Of a stretch of 40,226 nt of DNA, positions 16,779-40,226 are shown piece after piece. The DNA lies in the NCBI GenBank assembly GCA_035291705.1, contig DATDRM010000037.1, positions 1 to 40,226 of the forward strand, read 5' to 3'. Numbering within the stretch: the first letter of the stretch is position 1; each line of letters starts with the position of its first letter. Under the pieces are notes generated by a model, which was not told the DNA's origin, made no database searches, and saw only the letters and a list, made by a program, of their open reading frames with translations. The translations under genes and the position numbers were made by a program. The DNA comes from Anaerolineales bacterium (GTDB taxonomy: Bacteria; Chloroflexota; Anaerolineae; Anaerolineales; UBA4823).

Positions 16779-16779
16779 A

Positions 16780-16839
16780 GACGAACGACGAACGACCAAG
16801 GACCAAAGTAGAACAATCCTTCTTCCTTCGTCTTTCGTC
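16780..16839 (+). repeat. Inverted heptamer arrays forming a ~23-bp imperfect hairpin in the acsD-acsC spacer
   Basis: The 5' arm GACGAAC GACGAAC GACCAAG GA (16780-16802) pairs 19/23 with TCCTTCTTCCTTCGTCTTTCGTC (16817-16839). Loop is 14 nt and both arms have 7-nt periodicity. Confidence 0.65.
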
Positions 16840-16860
16840 ATTTGTCGATTGGAGAGAACC

Positions 16861-18201: not shown

Positions 18202-18204
18202 GAG

Positions 18205-18239
18205 TTGCGATTTGCAAATTGCGGGATGCGAATTGCGAA
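18205..18239 (+). repeat. Five tandem heptamers TTGCGAT TTGCAAA TTGCGGG ATGCGAA TTGCGAA in the acsC-RACo spacer
   Basis: Exact 7-nt register read directly from the sequence. The last unit supplies the A of the ATG at 18239. Contains the palindrome ATTTGCAAAT. Confidence 0.6.
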
Positions 18240-20179: not shown

Positions 20180-20191
20180 GAGAGGGCCCCT

Positions 20192-23709: not shown

Positions 23710-26700
23710 ATGGTAAAAACCCGGATAATCCGTGGTGAGCCCGCCGCGACCCTGGTGGTAGGCGGTGGTATTGGGGGTATGCGCGCCGCGTTGGATCTGG
23801 CTGATGCTGGGCTGAAGGTATACCTGGTTGAACAGACGCCCTGCCTGGGAGGCCGGGTCGCCCAACTCGGTTATATGTTCCCGCAACACGATTGCGTGCT
23901 CTGCCGGGGCACCGCCGACCATGGCTATGGCTGCACGCGTCCTTCCATTTCCCCGGCCTATATCCAACATAACCAGCACCCAAACATCGAAATCCTGACC
24001 AATACCCGCATCCTGGAAGTGGAGGGCGAGGCCGGCGACTTCACCGTATCCTTGCGCCAGGAACCACGTTACGTCGATCCAGTGCATTGCACAAGTTGCG
24101 GCCTGTGCGCACAGGTCTGCCCGGTCGAACTCCCCAACAGCTATCAATTGGGGATGACCATGCGCAAAGCCGCCTACAAAGTGGCGGCGCGGGCCACACC
24201 AGACGCTTACTGCATCGACAAAGGGCCATATTGCGAAACCTGCGGCGAATGCGTCAAGGCCTGCCCAACCGGGGCGATAGACCTGCACGAGCAGCCTCGC
24301 CTCTTAACCGTCGAGGTTGGGGCGATTATCCTGGCGCTCGGTTTCAAGGTTTACGACTCCAGCGAGATGGAAGAATTGGGGCATGGTCGTTATCCCAATG
24401 TCCTGGCGGCCATGCAGTACGAACGTCTGGCGAGCCGCTCCGGCCCGACCGAAGGCCTCATCACCCGCCCCTCCGATGGGCAAACTCCTCGTTCCATCGC
24501 CTGGCTGCAGTGTGTCGGTTCACGCGACCAAAACAATGCCTTCTGTTCGTCGATCTGCTGCATGTATGCCACCAAGGAAGCCATCCTCGCAAAACAGCGC
24601 CTGGGGAACGAAATTGGTTGCAGCGTCTTTATCATGGACGAACGCGCTTTCAACAAAGAGTATAGCGCCTACTTTTCCACCGCCCGCCAGCAGCATGGAA
24701 TCCAATATAACCATTGCCGGGTGTCCTCGATCCAGGAAGACCCATCTACACACGATTTGATCTTGTATTCGGCGGACCCCAACGGGAAACTCCGCCAGGA
24801 ACGGTTCGAGATGGTGGTACTGGCAACCGGCCTGCAGCCACCCGAGTCTGCCAGAGACCTGGCTAAAAACCTGGGCATTGAACTAAACCAATACGGGTTC
24901 TGCGAGACCGATAAATTTACACCTCTGCAAACTACACGACCTGGCGTCTTCGTATGCGGCGCCTTCTCCTCACCCAAAGAGATCGTTGAAACGATCATCG
25001 ATGCCAGCGGTGCGGCCGCCGAAGTCATGCGACTGCTCAACGATCGACTGCACACCTACACATACTCCCGCGCCTGGCCTTTCCTCTCAACCGATGATTT
25101 CCGTCCTGAAAAGGATGTCAGCCGGGAACCCGTGCGGGTTGGCGTCTTCGCTTGCAGTTGCGGGGATACTCTCAACGAGGTGATCGACATCCCCGCATTG
25201 TTGCACCAGGCCAGCCAGGTGCCGGGAGTGGTGCACGCCGAGATTCTGGACTACGCCTGCTTCCCAGAGAACCAGGAATACTTAAGGCAACGGATTCAAG
25301 AGGCGGACCTCAACCGGGTAGTGGTTGCCGCCTGCAGCAACCGCACCCATGAACCCCTTTTCCAACGCACCATCCGCATAGCAGGCCTTAATCCCTACTT
25401 GCTCGAAGTGGTCAACCTGCGCGAGCAATGCGCCTTCGTCCACCAAACTCAACCCCAGCTGGCGAACCGTAAAGCCATTGAGTTAGTGCGCGTCGCCGTT
25501 GGGCGCGTCTCGTCTGCACAACCAGTGAATAAGGATAAGCACCGCTGCCTGCCTTCTGCGCTGGTGATCGGAGGCGGTGTGGCAGGAATGTCTACTGCCC
25601 TGGCTATCGCCGACAGCGGCTACGATGTGCACCTGGTTGAACGGTCCGAGATGTTGGGGGGCAACCTGCGTAACCTGTACTACGTCGCCGAAGGATATAA
25701 CCCTCAGCGCTTGCTGCGCGACCTGGTCAACCGGGTGCGCGCCCACCAACGCATCAAGGTTTATATCCGCACGGAAATGATCAACCACAGCGGGCATGTA
25801 GGCCATTTTCGCAGTGAACTACGCGCCCAGCATAACGATCACATGGAAGTCATCACCGTCGAACACGGTGTGACAATCGTGGCGACGGGGGCGCAAGAAG
25901 CCAAGGGTTATCCTCTGCTGGAATTTCCCCTGGTCATTACCCAACAAGAGCTGGAAGAGAAAATCATTCACCACCCCGAGGAGATCGCCGCGCTCAAGCA
26001 TGTCGTCATGATCCAATGCGTGCGCACGAAGGGCGCGCCGGATTATTGCTCACGGGTGTGCTGCACAAATACGATCAAGAACGCAGTGCGTTTGAAGCTC
26101 TTCAACCCGACCTGTCAGGTCAGCGTACTCTATAAGAACATCGTTACCTACGGTTTCCGTGAGGAATACTACGAGGAAGCCAGAAAGCTGGGTGTGGTCT
26201 TCATCCGTTATACAGACGAACGGCCGCCAGAGGTGCTTTTAGAGGACAACCGGTTGGTCGTCAGGGCGTACGACCTGTCCCTGGATCGCTGGTTGCGACT
26301 GCCAGCCGACCTGATCCCGATGAGTATGTCAATCCTTCCTGCTGAGGGCACTCAAGAGCTTTCACGTATGCTGCGCGTGCCGATATCCAGCGAAGGGTTC
26401 TTCGAGGAGGCGCAAATGAAGCTGCGCCCGATGGACTTTATGCGCGACGGCATCTTCCTGGCCGGCATGGCCCACTATCCTAAATTTATCGAAGAGAGCA
26501 TCAGCCATGCTCTGGCGGCAGCCGGGCGCGCCTTGACTTTGCTCTCACAAGAGACGCTTTATTTGGGTGGTGTAATCGCGCAGGTGGATCCAAACAAGTG
26601 CGTCGGCTGCCTGACCTGCACGCGCACCTGCCCCTTCCAAATCCCGCAAATCATCTACCTGGAAGGGCGCACTGGCGTCGGTGAATTGGGCGGAGCGGCC

Positions 26701-26856
26701 TACATCGATCCAGCTCTTTGCCAGGGGTGCGGCACCTGTACTGGTGAATGCCCAGCCAATGCCATCCAGTTGGTCAACTATACCGATGAGCAGATGATGC
26801 TGCACGCGATTGGAGGATTAGGTAGCTGGAAAGTGCCGGTGGCCAGTATTCAGTAA
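23710..26856 (+). CDS. Double HdrA-like flavo-iron-sulfur oxidoreductase (two fused HdrA-type units, no NAD(P)H module)
   Basis: Two FAD motifs (VVGGGIGGMRAALDLADAGLKVYLVE and VIGGGVAGMSTALAIADSGYDVHLVE). HdrA signatures FPQHDCVLC, LQCVGSRDQNNAFCSSICCMYATKEA and MIQCVRTKGAPDYCSRVCC. Several CxxCxxCxxxCP ferredoxin motifs. TTG 23704 is an alternative start and GGGGAGG lies upstream. Confidence 0.8.
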   Translation: MVKTRIIRGEPAATLVVGGGIGGMRAALDLADAGLKVYLVEQTPCLGGRVAQLGYMFPQHDCVLCRGTADHGYGCTRPSISPAYIQHNQHPNIEILTNTRILEVEGEAGDFTVSLRQEPRYVDPVHCTSCGLCAQVCPVELPNSYQLGMTMRKAAYKVAARATPDAYCIDKGPYCETCGECVKACPTGAIDLHEQPRLLTVEVGAIILALGFKVYDSSEMEELGHGRYPNVLAAMQYERLASRSGPTEGLITRPSDGQTPRSIAWLQCVGSRDQNNAFCSSICCMYATKEAILAKQRLGNEIGCSVFIMDERAFNKEYSAYFSTARQQHGIQYNHCRVSSIQEDPSTHDLILYSADPNGKLRQERFEMVVLATGLQPPESARDLAKNLGIELNQYGFCETDKFTPLQTTRPGVFVCGAFSSPKEIVETIIDASGAAAEVMRLLNDRLHTYTYSRAWPFLSTDDFRPEKDVSREPVRVGVFACSCGDTLNEVIDIPALLHQASQVPGVVHAEILDYACFPENQEYLRQRIQEADLNRVVVAACSNRTHEPLFQRTIRIAGLNPYLLEVVNLREQCAFVHQTQPQLANRKAIELVRVAVGRVSSAQPVNKDKHRCLPSALVIGGGVAGMSTALAIADSGYDVHLVERSEMLGGNLRNLYYVAEGYNPQRLLRDLVNRVRAHQRIKVYIRTEMINHSGHVGHFRSELRAQHNDHMEVITVEHGVTIVATGAQEAKGYPLLEFPLVITQQELEEKIIHHPEEIAALKHVVMIQCVRTKGAPDYCSRVCCTNTIKNAVRLKLFNPTCQVSVLYKNIVTYGFREEYYEEARKLGVVFIRYTDERPPEVLLEDNRLVVRAYDLSLDRWLRLPADLIPMSMSILPAEGTQELSRMLRVPISSEGFFEEAQMKLRPMDFMRDGIFLAGMAHYPKFIEESISHALAAAGRALTLLSQETLYLGGVIAQVDPNKCVGCLTCTRTCPFQIPQIIYLEGRTGVGELGGAAYIDPALCQGCGTCTGECPANAIQLVNYTDEQMMLHAIGGLGSWKVPVASIQ

Positions 26857-26919
26857 TTAGTTGCCAGTAGTCAGTGGGAAGAAAACTGACTACTAACTAC
26901 CGACTACTAATTACTAGAG
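26857..26919 (+). repeat. Inverted heptamer arrays / hairpin in the hdrA-like to mvhD spacer
   Basis: AGTAGTCAGT (26866-26875) pairs perfectly with ACTGACTACT (26885-26894) around a 9-nt loop. The stem extends via TAGTT/AACTA with a GCC bulge. The 3' side reads ACTGACT ACTAACT ACCGACT ACTAATT ACTAGAG, 5 units in 7-nt register. Confidence 0.65.
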
Positions 26920-26927
26920 CAAAGGTA

Positions 26928-27467
26928 ATGATGACAATCAAACCAGCCATTCAAACCTTCGAGCCCGAGATCACCGCCTTTTTCTGTATTTACTGCGGTT
27001 ATATGGCCGCGGATACGGCCGGGGCACTGCATATCCAATATCCGGCTAACGTCAAATTTATCCGCATGCCCTGCACGGGAAAAACCGATATTCGTTACTT
27101 ATTAGAAGCTTTTGAGCAAGGCGCTGACGGCGTCTACGTAGTAGCCTGCCCGATCGGCAACTGCCATCACGTGCGCGGCAATGAACGCGGATGGGCCAGG
27201 TTGAAACGCGCCCAGAAAATCTTGGACGAAGTCGGGATCGGCGGCGAGCGCCTGGACATGTTTTTTATGTCCGGCAGCCAGGCCCACACCTTTGTCTCAG
27301 CTGTCCAAAACATGACGGCACGCATCCGCAAGCTGGGTCCGAACCCGCTGAAAGCCAAGGATGAAGGCAGAAGGGTGAAGGCTGAGAAAGTAATAATTGA
27401 ACCCGAAGAAGAAGTTGGATTTAGGGGTAGACCCCCCCGATCAGTCAAATCCAAGAAGGAAAGGTAA
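26928..27467 (+). CDS. mvhD: MvhD-like protein (methyl-viologen-reducing hydrogenase delta subunit family), Cys-type
   Basis: ITAFFCIYCGY...MPCTGK...GADGVYVVACPIGNCHH family pattern. The stop overlaps the next start (TAATG). ATG 26931 is an alternative. Carries a charged C-terminal extension. Confidence 0.8.
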   Translation: MMTIKPAIQTFEPEITAFFCIYCGYMAADTAGALHIQYPANVKFIRMPCTGKTDIRYLLEAFEQGADGVYVVACPIGNCHHVRGNERGWARLKRAQKILDEVGIGGERLDMFFMSGSQAHTFVSAVQNMTARIRKLGPNPLKAKDEGRRVKAEKVIIEPEEEVGFRGRPPRSVKSKKER

Positions 27468-30400
27468 TGGTTCGGAAAGCGGGCGATACCAGTGCAGTGC
27501 TCCCCGTCGGCGCGGTGATGGTCGTCGGGGGTGGGATCGCGGGTATGCAAGCCTCCTTAGACCTGGCCGATCAAGGCTTCAAGGTCTACCTGGTTGAAAA
27601 TAAGTCCGCCATCGGAGGGAAGATGGCGCAGCTCGACAAGACCTTCCCGACCAACGACTGCGCCATGTGCACCATCTCGCCCAAGCTGGTCGAGACTGGT
27701 CGCCATCCGAATATCGAGATCCTGACCAATACCAATGTGCTGGACGTCAGCGGGCAGGCCGGGGACTTCACCGTCACGGTGGAGCGCCAGCCCCGCTATG
27801 TCGACCTGAGCAAGTGCATCGCCTGCGGGGATTGCATCAAGGTCTGCCCGGTCATCGTCCCCGACACCTTTAACGAAGGACTGGCTCCTCGCCGGGCGGT
27901 CTATAAACTCTACCCGCAAGCCGTCCCCAACGCGTTTGCCATCGAAAAGCGCGGCATCGCCCCCTGCCGGGACGCCTGCCCATCCGGGCAGCGCGCCCAA
28001 GGCTACATCGCTCTGATCCGGGAGGGACGCTGGGAGGATGCTTTGCGGGTGATCAAAATGGACAATCCCTTTCCGGGCATCTGTGGGCGGATCTGCAACC
28101 ATCGCTGTGAAACGGCCTGCAACCGCGGCCAGGTCGACGAACCGATCAATATCCGCGCCCTGAAGCGCTTCGTCACCGATAAAGTCTACGCCTCGCCACG
28201 CCAACCGCTCGATCCAGTCGAGATTAAATACCCTGACCGGAGAGTCGCCATCATCGGCGCAGGACCATGCGGCCTGACGGCCGCCCAGGATGTCATTCGT
28301 GCCGGATACCCGGTGACGATCTTTGAAGCCATGCCCGTCGCAGGCGGCATGCTGCGCCTGGGCGTTCCCGAATACCGCCTGCCCGCCGAGGTCATCGAAC
28401 GCGAGGTGCAAGATGTCGTCGACCTGGGTGTTGACCTGCGCCTGAACACGCAAGTCAACAACTTGGACGACCTTTTCGAGGAAGGGTTTGCCTCTGTTCT
28501 GATCGCCGTCGGCGCTCACGAGGGTATCCGCCTGCCGATCCCAGGCGCCAACCTGGAGGGCGTGCTGATCAATACACATTTCCTGCGGGACGTCCGGCTG
28601 GGAAGGTACTCGAAGAAGGATGAAGGGGTGCCGGAGCTGGGGCAAAATGTATTAGTGCTCGGCGGCGGGAACGTGGCGATCGATGTCGCCCGCAGTGCAG
28701 TCCGCCTGGGTCGCCAGGTCTCAATGGCCTGCCTGGAAAGCGGCGAGCAGATGCCTGCCCACCCCTGGGAGATCCAGGCAGCCGAAGAGGAGGGCGTCGC
28801 CCTTTACCCAGGGCGCTCCTTCGAACGCGTCCTCCCAGACGAAAACGGCCGGGCCTGCGGCGTCGAGTGCATGCAGGTCAGCTCTTTCAGTTTCGACGAA
28901 GCTGGCCGCCTATCCGTCGAAAAGGCCCCTAATTCGAAGCATGTCATCGCCTGCGACACGGTGATCTTCTCGGTCGGTCAGCGCGCCGGCCTGGCTTTCA
29001 TTCCGGACGATGCTGGCGTTGGCCTGACCGAGCGCAAGACCATCGCCATCAATCCAAATACCTTTGCTGCAACTCGTCCAGGTGTGTTCGCAGCCGGGGA
29101 TAGCGTCTCCGGCACGGCCTTCGTGATCGAGGCGGTGAACAGCGGGCACAAAGCTGCCGAATCCATCCTGCGCTTCCTGCGCAGTGAAAACCTGGAGACG
29201 CCTCCCAAGCCGAAGTTGCCTGTGGTGCGCCTCACACGCCAGGAGCTCGAGGAACGGATGGGGCGTGGCGAGATCCACCGCAAGGGACGCATACCCCTGC
29301 CAGAGCTGCCCGTAGCGCAGCGGGTTGACAATTTCGCCGAAGTCGAAGGCGGATACGACGATGAGAGCGCCCAGGCCGAAGCCGCCCGCTGCCTGGCCTG
29401 TGGGATCTGCTCGGAGTGCATGTCCTGCGTCTTTGCCTGCGGGCGGAACGCCATTGACCATGATGACCTCCAACGCATCGAATCGCTGCAGGTCGGCGCG
29501 CTGATCCTCGCCCCAGGTTATCAGATTTACAACGCGCACCTGTCCGAAGAATATGGGCTGGGTCGCTACTCCAACGTGGTCACCGCTTTACAATACGAGC
29601 GGATGCTCTCCGCCAGCGGCCCCACCAAAGGACATGTCGAACGCCCCTCCGACGGGCACAAACCCAAGCGGATCGCCTTTTTACAGTGCGTTGGCAGCCG
29701 CGACCAAAGCCACGATTACTGCTCGTCGGTGTGCTGCATGTACGCAGCCAAGGAAGCCATCATGACCGTCGAGCACGCCAGGGCGGAGGCGCGCTCCGGA
29801 AATGGCGATGGCCAGGTGTCCTGCCAGGTCTTCTTCATGGACACGCGCGCCTTCAGCAAGGGGTACGAAGAATATTACCGCCGGGCGGAAGGCAAATACG
29901 GAGTCAAGTATACACGCTGCCGGCTGAGCGACCTTAAAGAAGACCCCCTCACCCACAACATCAGAGTCCGCTATGCTGCTCCATACCAGGGTATTCACGA
30001 GACCATCGAGGAAGAGTTTGACCTGCTGGTGTTATCCGTGGGGATGGAGATATCCGAGCCGGTTAAGGAACTCGGCCGGAACCTGGGGATCGAGCTCGAC
30101 CCTTACGGCTTTTGCCACACCACCCTATTTAATCCCTTGCAAACCAGCCGGGCTGGCATTTTTGTCGCCGGGCCCTTCCGTGAGCCAAAGGACATCCCCG
30201 AAACCGTGATGGAGGCCAGCGGGGCGGCGGCGAATGCGGCGCGCTTGCTCGCCCCGGCCCGCAACACCCTGGCCCAGGTACGCAGTTATCCGGACGAACG
30301 CGATATCATGGCAGAGGCCCCACGCGTCGGGGTGTTCGTCTGCCACTGCGGGAGCAATATCGGCGGTTTTCTCGACGTGCCCGGGGTGGCCGAGTACGCC

Positions 30401-32095
30401 CGCACCCTGCCCGGCGTGGCGCACGCCGAGGACAATCTCTACACCTGTTCCCAGGATACGATCGCCCATATTATCGATCAAGTTAAACAGCTGGAGTTGA
30501 ACCGGGTGGTGGTCGCTTCGTGCACGCCGCTCACCCACGAACCGCTCTTCCAGGATGCCATCCGCCAGGCCGGGCTTAACCCGCATCTCTTCGAGATGGC
30601 CAATATCCGCAACCAATGTTCGTGGGTGCACTCCTCTGATTGGGAAGGAGCGACCGCCAAGGCCAGGTCGATGGTACGCATGGCGGTGGCGCGCGCCAGT
30701 GAGCTGCAGCCACTGAAGACCTCCGAAGTGCCGGTCAACCATGCCGCCCTGATCATTGGCGGCGGGATAGCCGGGATGACTGCTGCACTCACGTTGGCCG
30801 ATCAGGGCTTTCCAGTCCATCTCATCGAGCGGGAAGAACAACTGGGCGGCAATCTGCGTCACCTGCACTACTTCCTGCCTGCAACTGCGTCTCTGCCGCT
30901 TCCTTTTCCCTCCCCTCAAGAATATCTCGCCGAAACGGTCGCCCAGGTCACCCGGCACCCAATGATCCAGGTTTACACGCAAGCTGAATTGATCGAGACC
31001 GGCGGATTTAAAGGCAACTTCACCTCCACGATCCGCCGGGATGAGGGCACATTCCAGGTGGGACATGGCGTGATCCTGATCGCCACGGGCGGCGTCGAAT
31101 ACAAGGGACGTGAATACGGCTACGGCACGCATCCCGGGATCCTTACGCAACTGCAATTCGAGGATTTCCTCGCCAACCAACCAGCTGAGATCAGCGACCT
31201 CCAATCTCTGGTCATGATCCAATGTGTTGGCCCAGGCGAGAAGTATTGCAGCCGCCTGTGCTGCACCACCGCCCTAAAGAACGCCCTCAAACTCAAGGAA
31301 CTCAACCCGCAAGCCCAGATCACGCTGCTCTACCGTGATATCCGCACCTATGGATTCAAGGAGCGCCTGTACACTGAGGCGCGGCGAGCGGGGGTCAGGT
31401 TCATCCACTTTGATTTTGATCGCAAGCCGGTAGTAAGAGTCAGTGAACAGCAAGATGCAAGCCGCAATCTGGGATCGATTACTGTCGAGGTGTGGGAGCC
31501 GCTGCTTGACAGGGAGATCACGCTGGAACCGGATCTGCTCGTGTTGAGCACACCTGTCGTCCCACCAAGCGGGGCGCGCGAGCTGGCTAGCCGGCTCAAG
31601 CTGCCGGTAGACATGGACGGTTTCTTCCTGGAGGCGCACGTCAAGTTGCGTCCGGTAGACTTCTCTGCAGACGGTGTCTTTATGGCCGGCCTGGCGCATT
31701 ATCCCAAGTTCCTCGACGAAACGATCGCCCAGGCCCAGGCAGCAGCCTCGCGGGCTGCCAATATTCTTTCACAGGAATTCATGCTGACAAACGCCCGCGT
31801 GGCGGTGGTAGACCCGCTAAAATGCGTCGGTTGTTTGACCTGTGTCCGGATTTGCCCTTACGATGTGCCGCGCGTGCGCGCTGACTTTGCCGGTGTTGGC
31901 AGTATCAGCGGCGCAGCGTATGTCGAGCCAGCCATCTGCCATGGATGTGGTACATGCGCCGCGGAGTGCCCAGCGCAAGCCATTCAGCTGATGCACTACA
32001 CCGACGCACAGACCCTGATGAAGCTGGATGCGCTTTTCAGACGCCAACCGGAAAAGGCAGGTTTTGTGCCCGTGACAAGCATAGAGGTACGCTGA
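27467..32095 (+). CDS. Giant HdrA-like / GltD(NfnB)-like / HdrA-like fusion oxidoreductase (HdrL-like), 1542 aa
   Basis: HdrA N-terminus (VVGGGIAGMQASLDLADQGFKVYLVE, FPTNDCAMC). Inserted GltD-type module (CRDACPSGQ...ICGRICNHRCETAC, VAIIGAGPCGLTAA, VLVLGGGNVAIDVA, FAAGDSVSG). HdrA core (FLQCVGSRDQSHDYCSSVCCMYAAKEA, FVCHCGSNI). Second HdrA-like unit (IIGGGIAGMTAALTLADQGFPVHLIE, MIQCVGPGEKYCSRLCC). C-terminal 2x[4Fe-4S] motifs. Confidence 0.85.
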   Translation: MVRKAGDTSAVLPVGAVMVVGGGIAGMQASLDLADQGFKVYLVENKSAIGGKMAQLDKTFPTNDCAMCTISPKLVETGRHPNIEILTNTNVLDVSGQAGDFTVTVERQPRYVDLSKCIACGDCIKVCPVIVPDTFNEGLAPRRAVYKLYPQAVPNAFAIEKRGIAPCRDACPSGQRAQGYIALIREGRWEDALRVIKMDNPFPGICGRICNHRCETACNRGQVDEPINIRALKRFVTDKVYASPRQPLDPVEIKYPDRRVAIIGAGPCGLTAAQDVIRAGYPVTIFEAMPVAGGMLRLGVPEYRLPAEVIEREVQDVVDLGVDLRLNTQVNNLDDLFEEGFASVLIAVGAHEGIRLPIPGANLEGVLINTHFLRDVRLGRYSKKDEGVPELGQNVLVLGGGNVAIDVARSAVRLGRQVSMACLESGEQMPAHPWEIQAAEEEGVALYPGRSFERVLPDENGRACGVECMQVSSFSFDEAGRLSVEKAPNSKHVIACDTVIFSVGQRAGLAFIPDDAGVGLTERKTIAINPNTFAATRPGVFAAGDSVSGTAFVIEAVNSGHKAAESILRFLRSENLETPPKPKLPVVRLTRQELEERMGRGEIHRKGRIPLPELPVAQRVDNFAEVEGGYDDESAQAEAARCLACGICSECMSCVFACGRNAIDHDDLQRIESLQVGALILAPGYQIYNAHLSEEYGLGRYSNVVTALQYERMLSASGPTKGHVERPSDGHKPKRIAFLQCVGSRDQSHDYCSSVCCMYAAKEAIMTVEHARAEARSGNGDGQVSCQVFFMDTRAFSKGYEEYYRRAEGKYGVKYTRCRLSDLKEDPLTHNIRVRYAAPYQGIHETIEEEFDLLVLSVGMEISEPVKELGRNLGIELDPYGFCHTTLFNPLQTSRAGIFVAGPFREPKDIPETVMEASGAAANAARLLAPARNTLAQVRSYPDERDIMAEAPRVGVFVCHCGSNIGGFLDVPGVAEYARTLPGVAHAEDNLYTCSQDTIAHIIDQVKQLELNRVVVASCTPLTHEPLFQDAIRQAGLNPHLFEMANIRNQCSWVHSSDWEGATAKARSMVRMAVARASELQPLKTSEVPVNHAALIIGGGIAGMTAALTLADQGFPVHLIEREEQLGGNLRHLHYFLPATASLPLPFPSPQEYLAETVAQVTRHPMIQVYTQAELIETGGFKGNFTSTIRRDEGTFQVGHGVILIATGGVEYKGREYGYGTHPGILTQLQFEDFLANQPAEISDLQSLVMIQCVGPGEKYCSRLCCTTALKNALKLKELNPQAQITLLYRDIRTYGFKERLYTEARRAGVRFIHFDFDRKPVVRVSEQQDASRNLGSITVEVWEPLLDREITLEPDLLVLSTPVVPPSGARELASRLKLPVDMDGFFLEAHVKLRPVDFSADGVFMAGLAHYPKFLDETIAQAQAAASRAANILSQEFMLTNARVAVVDPLKCVGCLTCVRICPYDVPRVRADFAGVGSISGAAYVEPAICHGCGTCAAECPAQAIQLMHYTDAQTLMKLDALFRRQPEKAGFVPVTSIEVR

Positions 32096-32580: not shown

Positions 32581-32591
32581 GAGGCTACGAC

Positions 32592-32996
32592 ATGGCAGAG
32601 ATGGAGAAAAGATCCTATATCCTGATCGTCGACGATGACCCGGACATCCTGGAGGGCATCGTCACTATCCTGGAGTCACAACCCTATCGCCTGGCCACGG
32701 CGCGGGATGGGAAAAAATGCATGGAGATGATCACACAGGAAATCCCGGATCTCTTGATCCTGGACCTGCTCATGCCGCGCATGGACGGTTGGGGCGTGAT
32801 TCGCGAGATGCGCAGCGAACCACGCTACACCCACGTTCCGATCATGGTGCTGACCACGGTCATTGAGGATGCCAGCCGGCGGCGCTATGAACTCGAGACC
32901 GGGATGGCGATGGACATCCAGGACTTCGTCCAAAAACCGGCTAACCCGGCAGATTTACTACAACGGGTAGAGAAACTGCTAAAAATCCATGTTTGA
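32592..32996 (+). CDS. Stand-alone response regulator receiver (CheY-like, no output domain)
   Basis: ILIVDDDPDI, phospho-acceptor context LLILDLLMPRMDG, conserved T (VLTT) and K (QKP). 134 aa, GGAGG RBS. Confidence 0.85.
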   Translation: MAEMEKRSYILIVDDDPDILEGIVTILESQPYRLATARDGKKCMEMITQEIPDLLILDLLMPRMDGWGVIREMRSEPRYTHVPIMVLTTVIEDASRRRYELETGMAMDIQDFVQKPANPADLLQRVEKLLKIHV

Positions 32997-34206
32997 AGTG
33001 TCTGCGCGCTCTCTCACGGTAACTGCAGAGCGGTTGCGCCGCTCAGAAATCTTCAGCGAACTATGCGATGAGGATTTAATCGCCATCGCCGAATTTTGTC
33101 GTGAGCAAACTTTCCACGAAGGTGAATTTGTGCTGGTGGAGGGCGCGCCCGCCGAGACCATGTTCATCGTAGAGCGCGGCAAACTGGCCCTGGAAAAGAA
33201 AATCCAGATCGGGCGGCACTCGACGCCGCGCAACGCGACCATCGGATACGTTGAACCAGGTAAGATCGCCGGCTTCTCTACCCTGACGATGCCCGATGAA
33301 TATTCCACCTCTGCCGTGTGCCTCGAACCCACCCGCGTCATTGCAGTCGATGGGAAAGCCTTGCGCGCCTTCCTGGAAACCCACCCGGCAGCCGGTCTCA
33401 AGGTGATGAGGATTCTAGCAATGCTGGTCGGCGGTCGCTATCGCAACGCAACCAACACCCTTACTTACTTCCTTTCCATTGTCTCGCACGAACTGCGTGG
33501 GCCTCTGGCAGCCATTGAGAACTATTTACAAACGATGCTCGGAGGCTTCGCCGGGGAGCTCAACCCAAAACAAAAACGCATGATAGAACGCAGCATCCTG
33601 CGCGTGGTCGACCTGCGCACCCTGATCGGCGACGTGGTCGACCTGGCGCGCATGCGCCCGGAACAGATCCAGGCCGATTTCGAATGGTGCAACCCAGGCG
33701 AAATAGGTACCGAATCGGTCGAGGATGCGCGCCTGGCAGCAGCCGAGAAAGGCATTCGCTTGATCATCGAACCGCCGCCCAAGTTCGAACCTATCGTTGG
33801 AGCGCGGCGACGATTACGGCAGGTTTTCACCAACCTGCTAAACAACGCCATAAAATTCTCACCCCCGGACAGCCGAGTGTTTTTTCGCGCCTGGTATGAA
33901 CAAGAAGCGGTCGTCTTAGAAGTCGAGGACGAAGGCCCGGGCATCCCCGAAGAAGACCTGCCCCATATCTTCAAAGATTTCTTCCGCGCCAGCAACGTCG
34001 AACAGACTCAAGGCGCGGGACTCGGCCTTTCGATCGCCATGAAAATCATTGAAGCTCACAATGGAAGAATCCTGGTCAGGAACTTGACTGGCGAGGCCGG
34101 CAAAACCGGCACCCGCTTTACTGTCTACATCCCCCGCGATCTGCTGACGCCTGAGATGCGTCGCAGGGAGTGGATAGCGACGGAAAGCGACCAGCTCAAA
34201 GGGTAG
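32989..34206 (+). CDS. Soluble sensor histidine kinase with an N-terminal CAP_ED (cNMP-binding-like) domain
   Basis: Crp-type beta-barrel pattern (IFSEL...F.EGEFVLVEGAPAETMFIVERGKLAL). H-box SIVSHELRGPL, N-box NLLNNAIKFSP, G1 EDEGPGIP, G2 GAGLGLSI. No TM segments. The start overlaps the receiver stop (ATGTTTGA). Confidence 0.85.
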   Translation: MFEVSARSLTVTAERLRRSEIFSELCDEDLIAIAEFCREQTFHEGEFVLVEGAPAETMFIVERGKLALEKKIQIGRHSTPRNATIGYVEPGKIAGFSTLTMPDEYSTSAVCLEPTRVIAVDGKALRAFLETHPAAGLKVMRILAMLVGGRYRNATNTLTYFLSIVSHELRGPLAAIENYLQTMLGGFAGELNPKQKRMIERSILRVVDLRTLIGDVVDLARMRPEQIQADFEWCNPGEIGTESVEDARLAAAEKGIRLIIEPPPKFEPIVGARRRLRQVFTNLLNNAIKFSPPDSRVFFRAWYEQEAVVLEVEDEGPGIPEEDLPHIFKDFFRASNVEQTQGAGLGLSIAMKIIEAHNGRILVRNLTGEAGKTGTRFTVYIPRDLLTPEMRRREWIATESDQLKG

Positions 34207-34226
34207 CTTCAGGTGAACTGAGAACG

Positions 34227-37200
34227 ATGAATAAGAGTGATTCGGCCATGATTAAATTAAACACAGCCGCACAAGTCGGCCCGGTCGGCGCCGTCCTGGT
34301 GGTCGGCGGCGGCATCGCTGGGATGCAAGCGGCGTTAGACCTGGCCGATCAGGGCTTCAAGGTATATCTCGTCGAGGAGAAATCGGCCATTGGCGGGCAC
34401 ATGGCCCAGCTCGACAAGACCTTCCCCACCAATGACTGCGCCATGTGCAACATCAGCCCCAAGCTGGTGGACACCGGGCGGCACACCAATATCGACATCC
34501 TCACCAATAGCGACGTGTTGAGCGTCGAGGGGCAAGCTGGCAATTTCACCGTGACCCTGCGTCGCAGGCCGCGCTACATCGATGTCGACAAGTGCGTGGG
34601 GTGTGGAGATTGTGCCGAGGTTTGCCCGGTTTCTATCCAGGACCTCTATGAAGAAGGATTGAAGGAGCGGAAAGCCGCTTATCGCCTCTACACCCAGGCA
34701 GTCCCCGCAGCTTACGCCATCGAGAAGCTCGGGATCGCTCCCTGCCGGGGGAGCTGCCCGGCCGGGCAACGCGCCCAGGGGTATATCGCCCTGATCGCCG
34801 AAGGCAGGTATCGCGAGGCACTGCGCGTCATCAAGGAGGATAACCCCTTCCCGAGCGTCTGTGGGCGAACCTGTCACCATCCATGCGAGGGCAGCTGCTC
34901 ACGTGCCCTGGTCGACCAGGCAGTGGGTATCATGTCGCTGAAGCGCTTCGTCGTCGACTACGCCCTGGCGTATGGACGGGAAAAGGTGGAACCAGTTCCC
35001 CGCACCCGTGCGGAATGGATTGCCGTGGTCGGTGCCGGGCCAGCCGGGTTGACCGCGGCGCATGACCTGGTGAAGCTCGGCTACGGGGTGACCGTCTACG
35101 AGGCGCTGCCGGTGGCCGGCGGCATGATGCGCGTCGGCATCCCGGCTCACCGCCTGCCTAAAGGCGTCCTTCAACAAGATATCGACGACATCCTTGCCCT
35201 GGGAGTGATGCTCAAGACAAACACCCCGGTTAAAGACCCGACGGCGCTGCTCAAGCAGGGATATGACGCAGTCTGCCTGGCGACCGGCATATCCTCCCCT
35301 GACCATTCCCTCGGCATCGACGGCGAGGAAGCGGACGGCGTTCTTTCAGCGGCCACCTTCTTACGTAAAATCAACCTCGGCGAGAAAATCACCATCGGAG
35401 AGCGTGTAGCCGTGGTGGGTGGTGGGATCACCGCCTTGGACACCGCGGCGGTTGCCAGGAGGTTGGGAGCGCAGGCGGTCTATCTGGTTCTCGACCGCCC
35501 ACGCGGTGAGCTGCCCGCTTACCATTGGGAGATGGCAGCAATTGAAGCGGAAGGCATCCATTTACACGAGCGCACCACTGCCATCCGCGTCCTGTCAGCC
35601 GGTGGTAAAGTAGTTGGCATTGAGCTCGCCCAAGCCAGCCAGGGTATAGAAGTGGATGCCAGCGGGCGGCGGCGTCCAAAGGTCAAAACTGGCTCGGAAT
35701 TCATCCTGGATGTCGACACGATCATCGGAACGGTGAGCCAGTTTTCAGATTTGAACTACCTGGATTCCCGCTTCGACGATCTGGCCGGCGATCCCCAGAC
35801 CCTGGCTAGCAAGGTCCCCGGTCTGTTCGTGGTCGGCGGCCGCAAGACCGGCGCCAGTTATATTATTGAAGCAGTGGCTCTCGGGCACCGGGTGGCCCGC
35901 TCTATCCACCAATTCCTGCAAAAACAACCGCTGGACCAGCCTGATCCACCGGCGCCACCCGTCGTGAAGTTCACCCGCCAGGAACTGGCCGAAAAAGTGG
36001 CAGCGGGTGAGATTCAACCGCAGGCGAGGATTGAACCCGCGCTGCTGCCAATGGAAGAGCGGGTGACCAGTTACCGCGAAGTTGTCCTCGGGCTGACTGA
36101 ACACCAGGCGCGGGCGGAAGCCCAACGCTGTCTGCAATGTGGCATCTGCTCAGAATGCCTGGCGTGCGTTTATGCTTGCGGAGTGAATGCCATCGACCAC
36201 AACATGGTGACGCGCCAGGAGCAGCTCAACGTGGGCGCAGTCATCCTGGCCCCTGGCTACCAGGTTTACCACGCCGAACTTTCAGAGGAATTTGGGTTTG
36301 GACGCTTCCCGAACGTAGTCACTGCCCTGCAGTTCGAACGCCTGTTATCAGCTTCCGGCCCGACGATGGGCCATATCAGCCGGCCTTCTGACCACAAAGC
36401 CCCCAGCCAGATCGCTTTCCTGCAGTGCGTGGGTTCCCGTGACCAGAGCCATGACTACTGCTCGGCGGTGTGTTGCATGTACGCCACCAAAGAAGCGGTG
36501 ATCGCCAAAGAACACCTGCCCGGCCTGGATGTGCATGTCTTTATGATGGATATGCGCGCTTTCTCCAAGGGATATTGGAGCTACTTCGAGCGAGCCCGCG
36601 ACCGCTATGGCGTCCACTACCACCGCAGCCGGATCAGCAGCTTATGGGAAGATGCTGAATCCCATGACCTGCTCCTGAATTATCTGGACGAGGGCGGGGT
36701 ACTGCACTCCGAACGCTTCGATATGGTTGTTCTTTCAGTGGGCATGGAGATCTCGGAATCCGTGCGCCAGATGGGACTTCGCCTGGGAATAGAGCTGGAT
36801 GAATATGGCTTCTGTCACACAACCCAATTCAACCCGTTAGAGACCAGCCGCCCCGGCATTTTCGCAGTTGGCCCATTTCGCGAGCCAAAGGATATCCCCG
36901 AATCTGTCGTCGAGGCTAGCGGAGCAGCCGCCACCAGCGCAGCCTTACTCGCTGGTGCACGTGGGTCGCTGACCCACATGCGTGAATACCCCGTTGAACG
37001 GGACGTTTCCGCAGAGCCACCGCGCATCGGGGTTTTCGTCTGTCATTGCGGTTCGAACATCGCCGGCTTTCTCGATGTGCCTGGCGTGGCCGGGTACGCG
37101 CGCCGGCTTCCCGATGTCGTTCACGCAGAAAATACGCTCTACGCCTGCTCTCAAGATTCGATTAAGTTAATTTCTCAGCGCATACAAGAGCTCAGCCTGA

Positions 37201-38762
37201 ACCGGGTCGTCGTGGCCAGTTGCTCGCCGCTCACTCACCAACCCCTATTCCAGGACAGCCTCCGGGCAGCAGGTTTGAACCCCTACCTGGTGGAAATGGC
37301 CAATATCCGCAACCAGTGCTCTTGGGTACACTCTGATGATTGGGAAGTAGCCACAGACAAGGCAAAAGAGCTGGTGCGTATGGCGGTAGCGCGGGCGGCC
37401 TTGCTCGCGCCGCAAACGACCATGACCGTCCCGGTGCAACGGGCCGCGTTGGTGGTCGGCGGTGGCGCAGCCGGAATGACCGCTGCCCTGGCGCTGGCCG
37501 AGCAGGGGTTCCCGGTACACCTGGTGGAAAAAGAGGCCGAATTGGGCGGTAACCTGCGGCAAATATTTACTTCGCTGCCACCTTCCGGAGTGGAGCAGCC
37601 CCAAGACCCGCAAGCCACCTTGCAACGCCTGGAAAGGTTAGTCCTTTCCCACCCAACTATTTCCTTGCACTTGAAGAGTAAAGTAGTTGCCACTTCCGGC
37701 TTCATGGGGAACTTCACCACCACGATCCTCCACGCCGATGGAGAGCGGGTTGCAGTAACCCATGGAGCGACGATCCTGGCAACCGGTGGCCAGGAATACC
37801 GCGGTCCTGAGTATGCCTACGGCACGCATCCGAAGGTCATCACGCAACAGAAGTTCGAGGCATTCCTTGCCAATCAGCCATCAGGGATCAAAAACATTAA
37901 ATCTATCGCCATGATCCTGTGCGTTGGGCCTGCGGAAAAATACTGTAGCCGCATCTGTTGCTCGGTCAGTCTCAAGAACGCCTTGCGGCTGAAGGAGATA
38001 AATCCGCAGGCGGAAGTCATGCTCCTTTATAAGGACATTCGCACCTACGGCTTTAAAGAAAGACTATATGCAGAGGCCCGCAAACACAACATCCTTTTCG
38101 CCCGCTACGACGACGCCCACCCTCCGCAAGTAGCGGCAGGGCAAGATGATATCTTGCCCTACGACGGTCTGACTGTTCGTGCTTGGGATGCCTCCCTGGA
38201 CAATTGGTTCACTTTGCAGCCGGATATCCTGGTGTTAAGCATGCCTATCGTCCCACGGCCTGAAACCGCTGATGTATCCAGGCTGTTCAAAGTCCCTACG
38301 GACAGGGATGGCTTCTTCCTCGAAGCCCACGTCAAGCTCCGCCCGGTGGATTTCTCCTCGGATGGGGTCTTCATGGCCGGCATGGCGCATTACCCAAAGC
38401 TGTTGGACGAAACCCTGATCCAGGCCCAGGCAGCCGCGGCGCGAGCGGGGCGTGTACTCAGCCGGGAGGCATTGACCGCCGGTGGACGGGTAGCTGTGGT
38501 GGATCCAAAATTGTGCACCGGCTGCCTGACTTGCGTGCGCATTTGCCCTTATGGCGTGCCAAAGATCCAGGCAGACCTGACTGGGGTAGGCGGCATCGTG
38601 GGTGCAGCCTTTATCGAAGCCGCCGTGTGCCTTGGCTGCGGCTCGTGTGTAGCCGAATGCCCGGCGCGCGCCATCCAGCTGATGCATTACACCGACGCGC
38701 AAATGAAGGCCAAGGTGGCGGCGTTATTCGTATCGTTGCCGGTTAATACGACCGAGGGTTGA
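34227..38762 (+). CDS. Second giant HdrA-like / GltD(NfnB)-like / HdrA-like fusion oxidoreductase (paralog of 27467..32095)
   Basis: Collinear with the upstream giant protein, with the same motifs in the same order ([35 protein letters not shown]...[81 protein letters not shown]; C-terminal ferredoxin motifs). The tracked start 34170 overlaps the kinase. ATG 34227 or 34248 is more likely. Confidence 0.85.
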   Translation: [1511 protein letters not shown]

Positions 38763-38791
38763 AGGAATTAGCAGATCATGAACAGGTCCAT

Positions 38792-39205
38792 ATGAATGCG
38801 CCAAAGTTGCAGATCATCAGCTATTGCTGTGAACACTGCGCCTACGCAGCTGCGGACCTGGCTGGGGGGCTCCGCCTGCAGTACCCGCCAGTCATCAAGA
38901 TCGTCCTGCTGCCCTGCACTGGCAAGCTAGATTCATTGATGGTGCTCCAGGCCCTGGAAGACGGCGCGGACGGTGTGATGGTGGCAGGCTGACTGCCTGG
39001 CGACTGTCATTACCAGTTAGGTAATGCCAACGCCAGACGCCGGATAAAGCGACTTAAAACATTGCTGGCCGAAATTGGCCTTGAGCCAGGGCGGGTGCGC
39101 ATGTTCAACCTGTCGTCGGCCATGGCGGGCGAGTTTGTTGCGGCGGCAAAAGACATGACGGAAACTATCGAAGATCTGGGGTCAAACCCCTTAAGGAAAG
39201 TATGA
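38792..39205 (+). CDS. mvhD: MvhD-like selenoprotein, in-frame UGA (38990-38992) read as selenocysteine
   Basis: Track ORF 38759..38992 stops at TGA. Continuing in frame gives ...GADGVMVAG-U-LPGDCHYQLGNANARRRIKRLKTLLAEIGLEPGRVRMFNLSSAMAGEF...GSNPLRKV, collinear with both other MvhD copies. The 3' half is missed by the track, which reports only an antisense shadow ORF 39010..39258. Confidence 0.8.
38997..39036 (+). promoter_or_regulatory. SECIS-like stem-loop 4 nt downstream of the UGA
   Basis: CTGGCG-ACTGT-CATTACC-AGTTA-GGTAATG-CCAA-CGCCAG, with a 6-bp outer stem, a 7-bp inner stem and a 5-nt apical loop. Confidence 0.6.
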
Positions 39206-39231
39206 AGGCTGAAGGCTGAAGGATGAAGGAT
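39204..39231 (+). repeat. Four tandem heptamers GAAGGCT GAAGGCT GAAGGAT GAAGGAT (left arm)
   Basis: Exact 7-nt register overlapping the mvhD stop codon. Reverse complement of the array at 39608-39635. Confidence 0.75.
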
Positions 39232-39246
39232 GATAGCTGAAATTAA

Positions 39247-39603
39247 ATGAATGAGCAAGATTTGAAAGTGAGGACCAAGAGCTTCGCGTTGATGGTGATC
39301 AAGCTTTACAGTATGTTACCCAAAACAACAGTGGCACAAGTTCTTGGCAAGCAAGTCTTGCGATCCGGCACATCGGTTGGAGCTCAATATCGAGAAGCAC
39401 AACGGGCGAAGTCTGATGCCGATTTCATAAACAAGATCGAAGGGAGCTTACAAGAACTAGAAGAAACAGCTTACTGGTTAGAACTTATTGAAGAAGCCGG
39501 TATCATATCAGAAGACAAGTTGGCGTTACTACTAAAGGAAACTAATGAACTTACGGCTATATTCGTCTCAATCGTTAGAAAAGTTAAGACTAAAAGAAGG
39601 TAA
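39247..39603 (+). CDS. Four-helix-bundle protein (23S rRNA intervening-sequence protein / Avd-like family)
   Basis: 118 aa with the family-typical pattern K.F.L.V..L...LPK......LG.Q..RSGTSVGA.Y.EA.RA.S..DF..K......EL.ET.YWLEL. Visibly more AT-rich than all flanking genes. Confidence 0.85.
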   Translation: MNEQDLKVRTKSFALMVIKLYSMLPKTTVAQVLGKQVLRSGTSVGAQYREAQRAKSDADFINKIEGSLQELEETAYWLELIEEAGIISEDKLALLLKETNELTAIFVSIVRKVKTKRR

Positions 39604-39607
39604 CCGC

Positions 39608-39635
39608 ATCCTTTATCCTTCATCCCTCATCCTTC
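39608..39635 (+). repeat. Four tandem heptamers ATCCTTT ATCCTTC ATCCCTC ATCCTTC (right arm, inverse of 39204-39231)
   Basis: ATCCTTC is the reverse complement of GAAGGAT. About 24 of 28 positions can pair with the left arm, counting G-U. Confidence 0.75.
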
Positions 39636-39650
39636 CTTCGGAGGTGGATC

Positions 39651-40226
39651 ATGATTGTTGCTGAACAAAAGACTTTAGAAGAGATTAAATCCCTGGTCGG
39701 GAGTGCCAAGAACGTATTGGTTATGGGCTGTGGCACGTGCGTGACGGTGTGCTTTGCCGGCGGTTCGCGCGAGGCCGCCATCCTATCCTCATCCCTGCGC
39801 ATGACGTCCAAGCTCGACGGCGCCCCGAAAAATGTCACTGACGTGACCGTCCAACGCCAGTGTGAATGGGAATACCTGGATGCGGTCGCCGAGCAGGTAA
39901 AAGAAGCGGACGTCGTGCTTTCGTTAGGCTGTGGGATCGGGGTGCAGGCGATCGCCGAACACTTTCCCAACACCTGGGTGGTGCCAGGATTGAATACCAA
40001 GTTCCTGGGGCTGCCCCTTGAGCAAGGGATATGGGCAGAGCGCTGCGCAGCGTGCGGTGACTGCATCCTCGGCCTGACCGGAGGTATCTGCCCGATCGCC
40101 CGCTGCTCCAAATCGCTGCTCAACGGCCCGTGCGGCGGCTCAGAGGACGGCCATTGCGAGATCAGTCCGGAAACCCCCTGCGCCTGGCAGTTGATTTATG
40201 ACCGGTTGAGCAGTCTGGGCAAGCTG
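39651..40226 (+). CDS. metV: MetV-like protein (methylenetetrahydrofolate reductase C-terminal-domain / zinc-ribbon FeS subunit), 3'-truncated by window edge
   Basis: Not in the ORF track because there is no stop before the window end. My translation reads MIVAEQKTLEEIKSLVGSAKNVLVMGCGTCVTVCFAGG...CAACGDCILGLTGGICPIARCSKSLLNGPCGGSEDGHCE...CAWQLIYDRL. GGAGGTG RBS lies 4 nt upstream. The antisense ORF 39620..40123 is its shadow. Confidence 0.8.
   Translation, partial: MIVAEQKTLEEIKSLVGSAKNVLVMGCGTCVTVCFAGGSREAAILSSSLRMTSKLDGAPKNVTDVTVQRQCEWEYLDAVAEQVKEADVVLSLGCGIGVQAIAEHFPNTWVVPGLNTKFLGLPLEQGIWAERCAACGDCILGLTGGICPIARCSKSLLNGPCGGSEDGHCEISPETPCAWQLIYDRLSSLGKL

Follow-up and report, generated by a model that had tools for sequence, protein, structure and literature searches.

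The coupling of methylenetetrahydrofolate (methylene-THF) reduction to energy conservation is an open point of the Wood-Ljungdahl pathway. Here, we analysed a 40,226-nt stretch of DNA from an Anaerolineales bacterium (assembly GCA_035291705.1, contig DATDRM010000037.1; hereafter the window), in which three large proteins related to HdrA of heterodisulfide reductase (Hdr), each followed by its own MvhD, are encoded in tandem between the acs genes and metV. Gene assignments were based on a listing of the open reading frames (ORFs) of the window and on Pfam and NCBIfam profile searches, whose E-values were far past chance: 1e-242 to 1e-278 for the HdrA2 model (1e-180 to 1e-278 for the NCBIfam HdrA2 and HdrA models together), 1e-41 to 1e-48 for FlpD and about 1e-150 for GltD/NfnB-type models. 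ORFs and profiles agreed on the order proposed in an earlier note on this DNA, namely double HdrA, MvhD with cysteine, HdrA-GltD-HdrA, MvhD with selenocysteine (Sec), response regulator receiver (REC), histidine kinase (HK), HdrA-GltD-HdrA, MvhD with Sec, an insert and MetV, and the domain annotation recommended there for the three large proteins recovered their HdrA and GltD/NfnB-like modules. The two HdrA-GltD-HdrA proteins are called HdrL-a and HdrL-b below, and the features of the region are as follows.

23710-26856, forward strand: double HdrA, 1048 aa (Pfam/NCBIfam)
26928-27467, forward strand: MvhD-1, 179 aa, cysteine type, motif VACPIGNCHH (FlpD, 1.1e-41)
27467-32095, forward strand: HdrL-a (HdrA-GltD-HdrA), 1542 aa (5ODC_A, 1.7e-177; NfnI large subunit 5JCA_L, 5.6e-76 over residues 164-574)
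32095-32580, forward strand: MvhD-2, 161 aa, TGA at 32299-32301, motif VAGULEGDCHY (FlpD, 3.5e-48; VhuD, 6.3e-46)
32307-32344, forward strand: hairpin of MvhD-2 resembling a selenocysteine insertion sequence (SECIS), -20.5 kcal/mol, z = -1.95
32592-32996, forward strand: receiver-only response regulator, 134 aa (Response_reg, 8.5e-25, sole domain)
32989-34206, forward strand: soluble histidine kinase, 405 aa (HATPase_c, 6.4e-29; cNMP_binding, 9.9e-12; HisKA, 2.3e-11)
34248-38762, forward strand: HdrL-b (HdrA-GltD-HdrA), 1504 aa (Pfam/NCBIfam)
38792-39205, forward strand: MvhD-3, 137 aa, TGA at 38990-38992, motif VAGULPGDCHY (FlpD, 2.2e-45)
38997-39036, forward strand: SECIS-like hairpin of MvhD-3, -21.9 kcal/mol, z = -2.93
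39204-39635, forward strand: inserted cassette with a gene of the four-helix-bundle/23S rRNA intervening sequence (IVS) family (39247-39603, 118 aa; PF05635, 6e-20; TIGR02436, 1.4e-25)
39651-40226, forward strand: MetV, first 192 of 227 codons, continuing past the window end (PF12225, 2.9e-33)

The mvhD1/hdrL-a and hdrL-a/mvhD2 junctions are stop/start overlaps of 1 nt and the remaining gaps are at most 71 nt, while a promoter and terminator scan found nothing that exceeded shuffled expectation and no terminator or clear promoter between the modules. Because of this spacing on a single strand, together with the lack of a terminator signal above chance, the genes of the region are likely co-transcribed. 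Our data suggest that the region probably makes up the electron-transfer half of a locus for a methylene-THF reductase of the Hdr type (Moorella-type, "type IV") in a Wood-Ljungdahl Anaerolineae bacterium.

The part of the locus that decides its type lies just outside the window, which corresponds to positions 4613-44838 of a 46,233-bp metagenomic contig (ENA ERZ27254791, k141_690399) found through its match to HdrL-a. We also scanned for related loci, taking one genome per species and combining ORF calling with BLASTP against the window proteins; the resulting 80 loci (loci and contigs are cited below by L number) come chiefly from Anaerolineae and other Chloroflexota metagenome-assembled genomes (MAGs), with some Desulfobacterota, Dehalococcoidales, one Bacillota MAG and others. 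On the longer contig, metV is complete (227 aa; full-length match, 7.3e-38) and, as anticipated in the earlier note, metF (342 aa; PF02219, 1.3e-37) comes after it, starting 3 nt downstream. A third gene starts 44 nt past metF, and its first 70 codons (CYQCVKCTSGCP...), with an HdrC-like start, reach the contig end; the 70-residue fragment, which reads ...ENVYLCYQCVKCTSGCPVGQYFDWQPNQIMRAL..., is identical over its length to the product of a 474-aa gene with Fer4_8/Fer4_17 and CCG domains in contigs that are 92-95% identical (L004 and L005, with HdrL-a 95% identical). The equivalent gene in L006, a 367-kb contig with 77% identity, encodes 479 aa. In L008, the homologue (70% identical over the 70 residues) contains an HdrC-type dicluster Fer4_17 domain and two CCG domains, and it matches solved structures of HdrC (6e-13, residues 13-105) and of HdrB over its full length (about 1e-39, residues 190-470). 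An HdrC-HdrB fusion of 465-515 aa directly follows metF in 37 of the 80 loci, and nine more loci end at metF. Thus, given the start of hdrCB on the contig and the complete copies in close relatives, the cluster does encode a predicted HdrBC thiol/disulfide module, in the form of a single HdrC-HdrB fusion past metF.

This result bears directly on the interpretation put forward in the earlier note, in which a second HdrA unit, together with the GltD module, takes the place of the thiol/disulfide module, and a self-contained NAD(P)H/ferredoxin/MvhD wire feeds MetFV directly. Within the window, neither hdrB nor hdrC is indeed present, and two Desulfobacterota loci (L050 and L057) have HdrL-MvhD-MetV-MetF without an adjacent HdrCB. 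However, the impression that HdrB and HdrC are missing arose because the window stops before metF-hdrCB, and it does not hold for the contig, on which the fused gene directly follows metF. Substitution of HdrBC by the second HdrA unit and GltD is further contradicted by the Moorella enzyme, whose published HdrA subunit is the same HdrA-GltD-HdrA fusion and whose complex still retains HdrB and HdrC (PMC9430772). We therefore regard a wire lacking HdrBC as very improbable, and the idea that such clusters can do without HdrBC needs to be corrected. Of the two neighbours that the note had named as evidence contrary to its proposal, hdrBC is found downstream with metF, and a conventional hdrA is not.

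With the downstream genes included, all parts of an Hdr-type methylene-THF reductase are encoded in one tight same-strand cluster beside the acs genes: adjacent metV and metF, HdrA with the FAD domain of thioredoxin reductase (TrxR) type and iron-sulfur (Fe-S) ligands, HdrB/HdrC and three copies of MvhD. The linkage recurs widely, as HdrL-MvhD is followed by MetV-MetF in 45 of the 80 loci, in agreement with the earlier proposal that the HdrA/MvhD proteins are candidate flavin-based bifurcating partners of methylene-THF reductase. A double HdrA-MvhD directly precedes HdrL in 35 loci, and 17 contain the complete two-module cluster (double HdrA-MvhD-HdrL-MvhD-MetV-MetF-HdrCB). Two HdrL genes with REC/HK between them were found in 13 loci (and in four truncated ones), eight of the 80 carry the three-module string HdrL-MvhD-REC/HK-HdrL-MvhD-MetV-MetF-HdrCB, with the double HdrA in front only in some, and the Moorella order hdrC-hdrB-hdrL-mvhD-metV-metF was seen in three (L062, L083 and L086). 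Two HdrA/MvhD modules are the rule in Anaerolineae, and a third module, with a kinase and a receiver-only regulator in front of it, is present in 13-17 loci; the layout in the window is therefore recurrent and conserved, not a one-off, and the cluster type is widespread in Chloroflexota MAGs, beyond marine lineages. When placed in a rough neighbour-joining tree, most of the HdrL copies located after REC/HK group in a clade of their own (the HdrL-b clade), and because the copies of L037, L041, L047 and L084 fall outside it, we do not claim a single origin for the third module. In addition, an extra HdrA set of some Anaerolineae loci, consisting of two separate HdrA-like genes (about 360-640 aa) and MvhD, sometimes with small HdrC/HdrB-like genes, occurs in L029, L052, L056, L079 and L082 (upstream of the double HdrA) and in L064, L067 and L072, so that a single locus can have more than three HdrA modules. 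In L006 (629-5256), the three-module cluster does not come after acs genes; the genes in front of it are those of an Fe-S protein, of a NuoE/F-like protein and of a formate-dehydrogenase-type molybdopterin cluster, a redox enzyme likewise related to the Wood-Ljungdahl pathway.

We then consider the architecture of the three large proteins, each half of which was aligned to HdrA of Methanothermococcus thermolithotrophicus (5ODC_A). In all three, unit 1 has the Cys194/Cys197 pair and the inserted ferredoxin domain with all eight cysteines and lacks the N-terminal cluster domain and the C-terminal 2x[4Fe-4S] ferredoxin domain; unit 2 has the N-terminal cluster domain (equivalents of Cys11/13/46/71/103) as well as the ferredoxin domain of the C-terminus, and lacks the Cys194/Cys197 pair and the inserted domain; the cluster cysteines of the TrxR domain (386/399/403/404) are present in both. 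In the double HdrA, unit 1 (about residues 1-455), comprising the TrxR/FAD domain, Cys194/Cys197 and the inserted ferredoxin domain, aligns to 5ODC_A 144-560, and unit 2 to 3-234 and 379-642. In archaeal HdrA, Cys197 donated by the partner protomer completes the N-terminal cluster. The cysteine and domain patterns of the two units here are complementary. By sequence, each of the three proteins joins two HdrA units covalently into an asymmetric pseudo-dimer and is followed by its own [2Fe-2S] MvhD, and the reasoning of Chadwick et al. (bioRxiv 10.1101/2021.09.25.461819), who argued that complementary HdrA fusions are their own heterodimer, can be carried over despite the reversed order of the units. 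Equivalents of E356/K409, the Glu/Lys pair that marks bifurcating HdrA flavins according to the criterion cited in PMC9430772, are retained in all six TrxR units (E711/K762 and E1232/K1271 in HdrL-a).

HdrL-b is a paralogue of HdrL-a, with the same architecture and 56% identity along the full length, and the double HdrA corresponds to HdrL without the GltD insert, being 45% identical to it outside the insert. The insert comprises about 500 residues (about 160-660 in HdrL-a), is placed between the two four-cysteine motifs of the inserted ferredoxin domain, and is NfnB/GltD-like, with Fer4_20 and Pyr_redox_2, two [4Fe-4S] motifs and the FAD and NAD(P)H folds; the ferredoxin domain of the double HdrA is uninterrupted. 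The name HdrL, which the earlier note had offered subject to verification, is correct: it was applied by Strittmatter 2009 (PMC2702500) to HdrA/glutamate-synthase fusions that precede mvhD, and both proteins carry Fer4_20 and Pyr_redox_2 inside HdrA and are each followed by mvhD. Where beta-strand 2 of the NAD(P)H fold ends in the insert, HdrL-a reads ACLESGE (about residues 393-441, window about 28643-28789) and HdrL-b reads LDRPRGE (window about 35430-35570); ACLE(S/P)R is the motif of the HdrL-a clade and LDRPRGE that of the HdrL-b clade, and the canonical YRR(S/T) is found in Desulfobacterota HdrL and in some second-copy HdrL. Judging from what is known of NfnB and GltD, these clade-specific motifs may reflect different NADH/NADPH specificity; the predicted preference would be for NADH with ACLES and LDRPR and for NADPH in copies of the YRR type.

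The closest biochemical reference is the MetFV-HdrABC-MvhD methylene-THF reductase of Moorella thermoacetica, which was reportedly described by Mock et al. in 2014. The locus analysed here encodes the same six protein families and shares the linkage to Wood-Ljungdahl genes. Moreover, when compared by published domain description and residue numbers, the HdrL layout matches that of the 162.8-kDa HdrA of M. thermoacetica, in which the N-terminal TrxR-like unit with its ferredoxin domain is interrupted by a GltD domain, the C-terminal HdrA is without an inserted ferredoxin domain, and both flavin sites have the E/K pair (E696/K750 and E1204/K1246); its GltD domain binds a [4Fe-4S] cluster, FAD and NAD(P)H, and this HdrA is described as oxidising NADH (Kremp 2022, PMC9430772). 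In contrast to the single HdrA/MvhD pair, separate hdrC and hdrB and order hdrCBA-mvhD-metVF of Moorella, the present locus has three HdrA/MvhD pairs, one of them without GltD; its hdrC is fused to hdrB and located after metF, two of its MvhD proteins carry Sec, and a two-component system is embedded in it. The HdrA of Sporomusa ovata (101 kDa, two TrxR-like units, no GltD) is similar to the 1048-aa protein; however, it is reported to be without an inserted ferredoxin domain and to have E/K in one unit only, whereas unit 1 of the double HdrA contains a complete eight-cysteine inserted ferredoxin domain and both of its units retain E/K. Pull-downs of the S. ovata HdrCBA-MvhD-MetVF proteins showed contacts among MetV, MetF, HdrA, HdrB and MvhD (PMC9430772).

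A cluster of this type has already been reported from the same class. Sewell, Kaster and Spormann 2017 (PMC5736913) described hdrA-mvhD-metVF-hdrBC in marine Anaerolineae (single-cell genome DscP3, An-B22, SM23 bins), also with hdrC translationally fused to hdrB and a two-component system within, and interpreted it as a Moorella-type bifurcating methylene-THF reductase; that layout was also found in L026, L046, L048 and L056. It differs in that there is a single hdrA, metVF occurs as two pairs and the two-component system flanks metF, whereas the present locus has a double HdrA and two HdrL, one metVF pair, and the kinase and receiver before the third HdrA. In addition, the cluster was considered unique to marine subphylum-I Chloroflexi, whereas our scan found it in many Anaerolineae MAGs and in other phyla. 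The statement of the earlier note that the arrangement is uncharacterised is therefore valid only in part: the cluster type and the HdrA-GltD-HdrA fusion are known, but no description of duplicated or triplicated HdrA/MvhD modules was found in the open-access literature searched (cluster name; Anaerolineae with hdrA, mvhD and metF), and the multiplicity of these modules appears to be the new element.

Other known systems also share features with the locus. The HdrL proteins of Desulfobacterium autotrophicum and Syntrophobacter fumaroxidans are likewise large HdrA/glutamate-synthase fusions that always precede mvhD, and several of the MvhD proteins contain Sec (PMC2702500, PMC5947623); however, they lie beside dsrABC or hdrABC and not metVF, are discussed for sulfite/DsrC reduction, and in D. 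autotrophicum two HdrL themselves contain Sec, whereas both HdrL here do not. HdrA fusions of ANME archaea (bioRxiv 10.1101/2021.09.25.461819) have the same complementarity of N-terminal domain and Cys197 between units and an NfnB-like insertion of about 500 aa in the inserted ferredoxin domain, but their unit order is reversed, with the N-terminal-domain unit first, fusion and insertion occur in different proteins, and in ANME-1 no such HdrA is linked to metF. The MvhADG-HdrABC complex of methanogens (PDB 5ODC and others) provides homologues of HdrA, HdrB, HdrC and MvhD with conserved cluster ligands; in contrast to it, MvhA/MvhG hydrogenase and CoM-S-S-CoB metabolism are both lacking here, and the HdrA homodimer is replaced by a fused asymmetric pseudo-dimer. 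No hydrogenase (MvhA/MvhG) is among the annotated genes of the window or of L003-L006, and no NfnA-type gene is present in the window or the locus, where the NfnB-like module occurs only as the HdrL insert. By gene content, the locus thus corresponds neither to a methanogen-type MvhADG-HdrABC nor to an NfnAB transhydrogenase.

How would such a reductase work? The catalytic core would consist of MetV, MetF and the fused HdrC-HdrB, encoded after the third MvhD. The potential (E0') of methylene-THF reduction is -200 mV. We propose that the GltD-like module of HdrL takes electrons from NAD(P)H, that these travel through the Fe-S clusters of the ferredoxin domain to the HdrA flavins, and that they pass from there by way of HdrCB and/or MvhD-MetV to the flavin of MetF and on to methylene-THF; the flow may also run in reverse. 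At an HdrA flavin, the exergonic step would be coupled to a low-potential partner by bifurcation or confurcation. Because a plain inserted ferredoxin domain is the ferredoxin-facing element in the archaeal enzyme, the most probable place for contact with ferredoxin is the plain domain of the double HdrA. All three HdrA/MvhD pairs could serve as parallel input modules on one MetVF-HdrCB core, binding to it at the same time or in turn. Double HdrA-MvhD and HdrL are strictly co-conserved and translationally coupled, which argues that at least these two work together. A stronger version, in which the double HdrA and the HdrL protein or proteins sit together on one MetVF-HdrCB core as an NAD(P)H-dependent, ferredoxin-reducing bifurcating megacomplex that has a pyridine-nucleotide site as well as a ferredoxin site, with the conserved receiver acting directly on it and not on transcription, seems unlikely to us; if true, it would provide the Moorella-type enzyme with the "second acceptor" site it has lacked since 2014. 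The Anaerolineae loci present a natural experiment, in which an intact-ferredoxin HdrA and one or two NAD(P)H-module HdrA with differing nucleotide-site motifs belong to one conserved operon and share a single MetVF-HdrCB core; they yield concrete predictions on the pairing of modules and carriers and could help to identify the redox partners of Hdr-type reductases.

Several points weigh against assigning the whole region to such a reductase. In the Moorella-type enzyme, NADH reduces viologen and reduced viologen reduces methylene-THF, but NADH has never been observed to pass electrons on to methylene-THF, ferredoxin failed as an acceptor and a quinone has been proposed (PMC9430772, PMC5861303); since that transfer has not been seen even in Moorella, the bifurcation step is conjecture. 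The Chloroflexota version is a prediction from sequence, the hdrCB of this genome is represented on its contig by 70 codons only, and a single HdrCB and a single MetVF stand against three HdrA modules. The cassette with its long inverted repeat, described below, may separate the metVF-hdrCB transcripts from those of the hdr genes in this lineage. Finally, HdrL-MvhD pairs occur elsewhere without MetVF, namely beside separate hdrC/hdrB and a GltD-like gene in Syntrophales (L075-L081) and beside dsrABC in D. autotrophicum (PMC2702500), and linkage is therefore no proof that all three modules serve MetF.

The same pairs invite a different explanation, that one or two of the HdrA/MvhD pairs act alone or with other partners and are located here only through shared Wood-Ljungdahl regulation. 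As candidate roles, such a pair might be an Nfn-like NAD(P)H:ferredoxin oxidoreductase, deliver electrons to carbon monoxide dehydrogenase/acetyl-CoA synthase (CODH/ACS) or formate dehydrogenase, or serve as donor to a disulfide at HdrCB. Consistent with this explanation, HdrL-MvhD of S. fumaroxidans is found with HdrABC and is abundant during sulfate reduction (PMC5947623), one HdrA suffices in Moorella (PMC9430772), the double HdrA-MvhD comes after hdrCB in L022 and lies on the opposite strand in L043, and a formate dehydrogenase cluster precedes the first module in L006. However, the modules stay with metVF-hdrCB in dozens of Chloroflexota species, with overlapping start and stop codons, and no gene for an alternative acceptor is consistently adjacent. 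We consider it rather unlikely and retain the reading of the region as the electron-transfer half of an Hdr-type reductase.

A further question concerns the third module and the two-component system within it. The kinase combines a cNMP-binding-like sensor domain with HisKA and HATPase_c; it is soluble here, with the cNMP-binding-like domain at its N-terminus, and kinases of the L026 type span the membrane. In the window, the regulator consists of one receiver, and it is represented elsewhere by a REC-REC fusion (257-268 aa) or by two separate REC genes; examples of two-component genes in other loci are L010 7897-9971, L037 12784-14744 and L026 18066-21755. No DNA-binding output domain was found in the embedded regulator in any lineage compared, which suggests a phosphorelay or direct control at the protein level, not a classical transcription switch. 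The kinase and the receiver-only regulator would form part of the third module, the use of which they probably adjust. One possibility, considered tentatively, is that this module (REC-HK-HdrL-b-MvhD) is a conditional isoenzyme of the second, for example one suited to another pyridine nucleotide or another redox poise; the two-component system would then switch it, and it would not be an additional, simultaneous subunit. The shared architecture and 56% identity of HdrL-a and HdrL-b would fit this possibility, as would the systematic difference of their NAD(P)H-site motifs, set against the canonical YRR of NfnB-like copies, the location of REC/HK always directly upstream of the extra HdrL, and the prevalence of only two modules in most Anaerolineae. 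On the other hand, without a DNA-binding domain on the regulator, classical transcriptional switching is not evident, the modules are not divided by a terminator or clear promoter, and the step from motif to nucleotide specificity draws on knowledge of NfnB/GltD.

Selenocysteine is a further feature of the locus. Sec-containing MvhD/VhuD is a known selenoprotein family (PMC2702500). In the motif ...DG[VI]x[VI]xG(C/U)xxGxCH of MvhD, the C/U position is encoded by TGA in 42 cases and by TGC/TGT in 52 across all fetched loci; it is always Cys in the MvhD after the double HdrA and usually TGA in the MvhD after HdrL. Both TGA codons of the window are followed by a hairpin, which in MvhD-2 begins 8 nt downstream of the TGA and has the apical stem AUUACCU/AGGUAAU. 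The 6-bp apical stem (AUUACC/GGUAAU) is perfect at 38 of 38 distinct TGA sites and at two of 51 Cys sites, and L062 shows a compensatory change of A-U to U-A within it. An Rfam scan of the window matched only a tRNA-Gln and no SECIS family, and selA, selB, selC and selD are not on this contig. Because the TGA codons align with Cys codons and the hairpin is specific to TGA sites, the reading of both as Sec, already made in the earlier note, is well supported by the sequence comparison.

The cassette between mvhD3 and metV is flanked by 29-nt inverted repeats, which are 86% complementary and composed of tandem 7-nt GAAGGMT units, and the transcript could fold a long stem around the inserted ORF, as in ribosomal intervening sequences. 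The four-helix-bundle/23S-IVS family includes proteins like Avd of diversity-generating retroelements. At this position, the four-helix-bundle gene is found only in L001-L005, the nearest relatives of the window, and is absent from L006-L086; in L006 the site is occupied by an acetyltransferase gene, and in most loci it is empty. The cassette is probably not part of the reductase.

The genes upstream of the double HdrA, which include the acs set, are listed below.

11282-21115, forward strand: acs set (cooS/acsA, acsB, acsD, acsC, acsV/RACo and acsE), carbonyl branch within the Wood-Ljungdahl pathway (NCBIfam)
11282-13294, forward strand: cooS (CO_DH_cata, 2e-180)
21169-22530, forward strand: malic enzyme (family matches)
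22572-23477, forward strand: TrxR-like flavoprotein, 301 aa, without CxxC (family matches)

The NCBIfam scores of the remaining acs products were 1.6e-285 for CODH/ACS alpha/beta, 2.4e-110 for delta, 3.7e-169 for gamma, 6e-189 for AcsV and 2e-64 for the methyltransferase. The best solved relatives of the TrxR-like protein are low-Mr thioredoxin reductases and TrxR-type ferredoxin-NADP reductases, and it may contribute to the NADPH/ferredoxin balance of the pathway. A role as disulfide partner of HdrCB was rejected, since there is no CxxC motif in its 301 aa. The pair of malic enzyme and TrxR-like genes also precedes the double HdrA in L014, L018, L035, L038, L042, L070, L071 and L085. Further upstream, the window (14-10622) carries unrelated housekeeping genes, including those for a penicillin-binding protein transpeptidase, minCDE and ftsW/rodA, together with GltX-type and GlnS-type tRNA synthetases, which are encoded on opposite strands; further ones are tRNA-Gln(CTG), located at 8038-8109, and the genes for a multicopper oxidase/nitrite-reductase-like protein and for a protein weakly similar to ZIP transporters.

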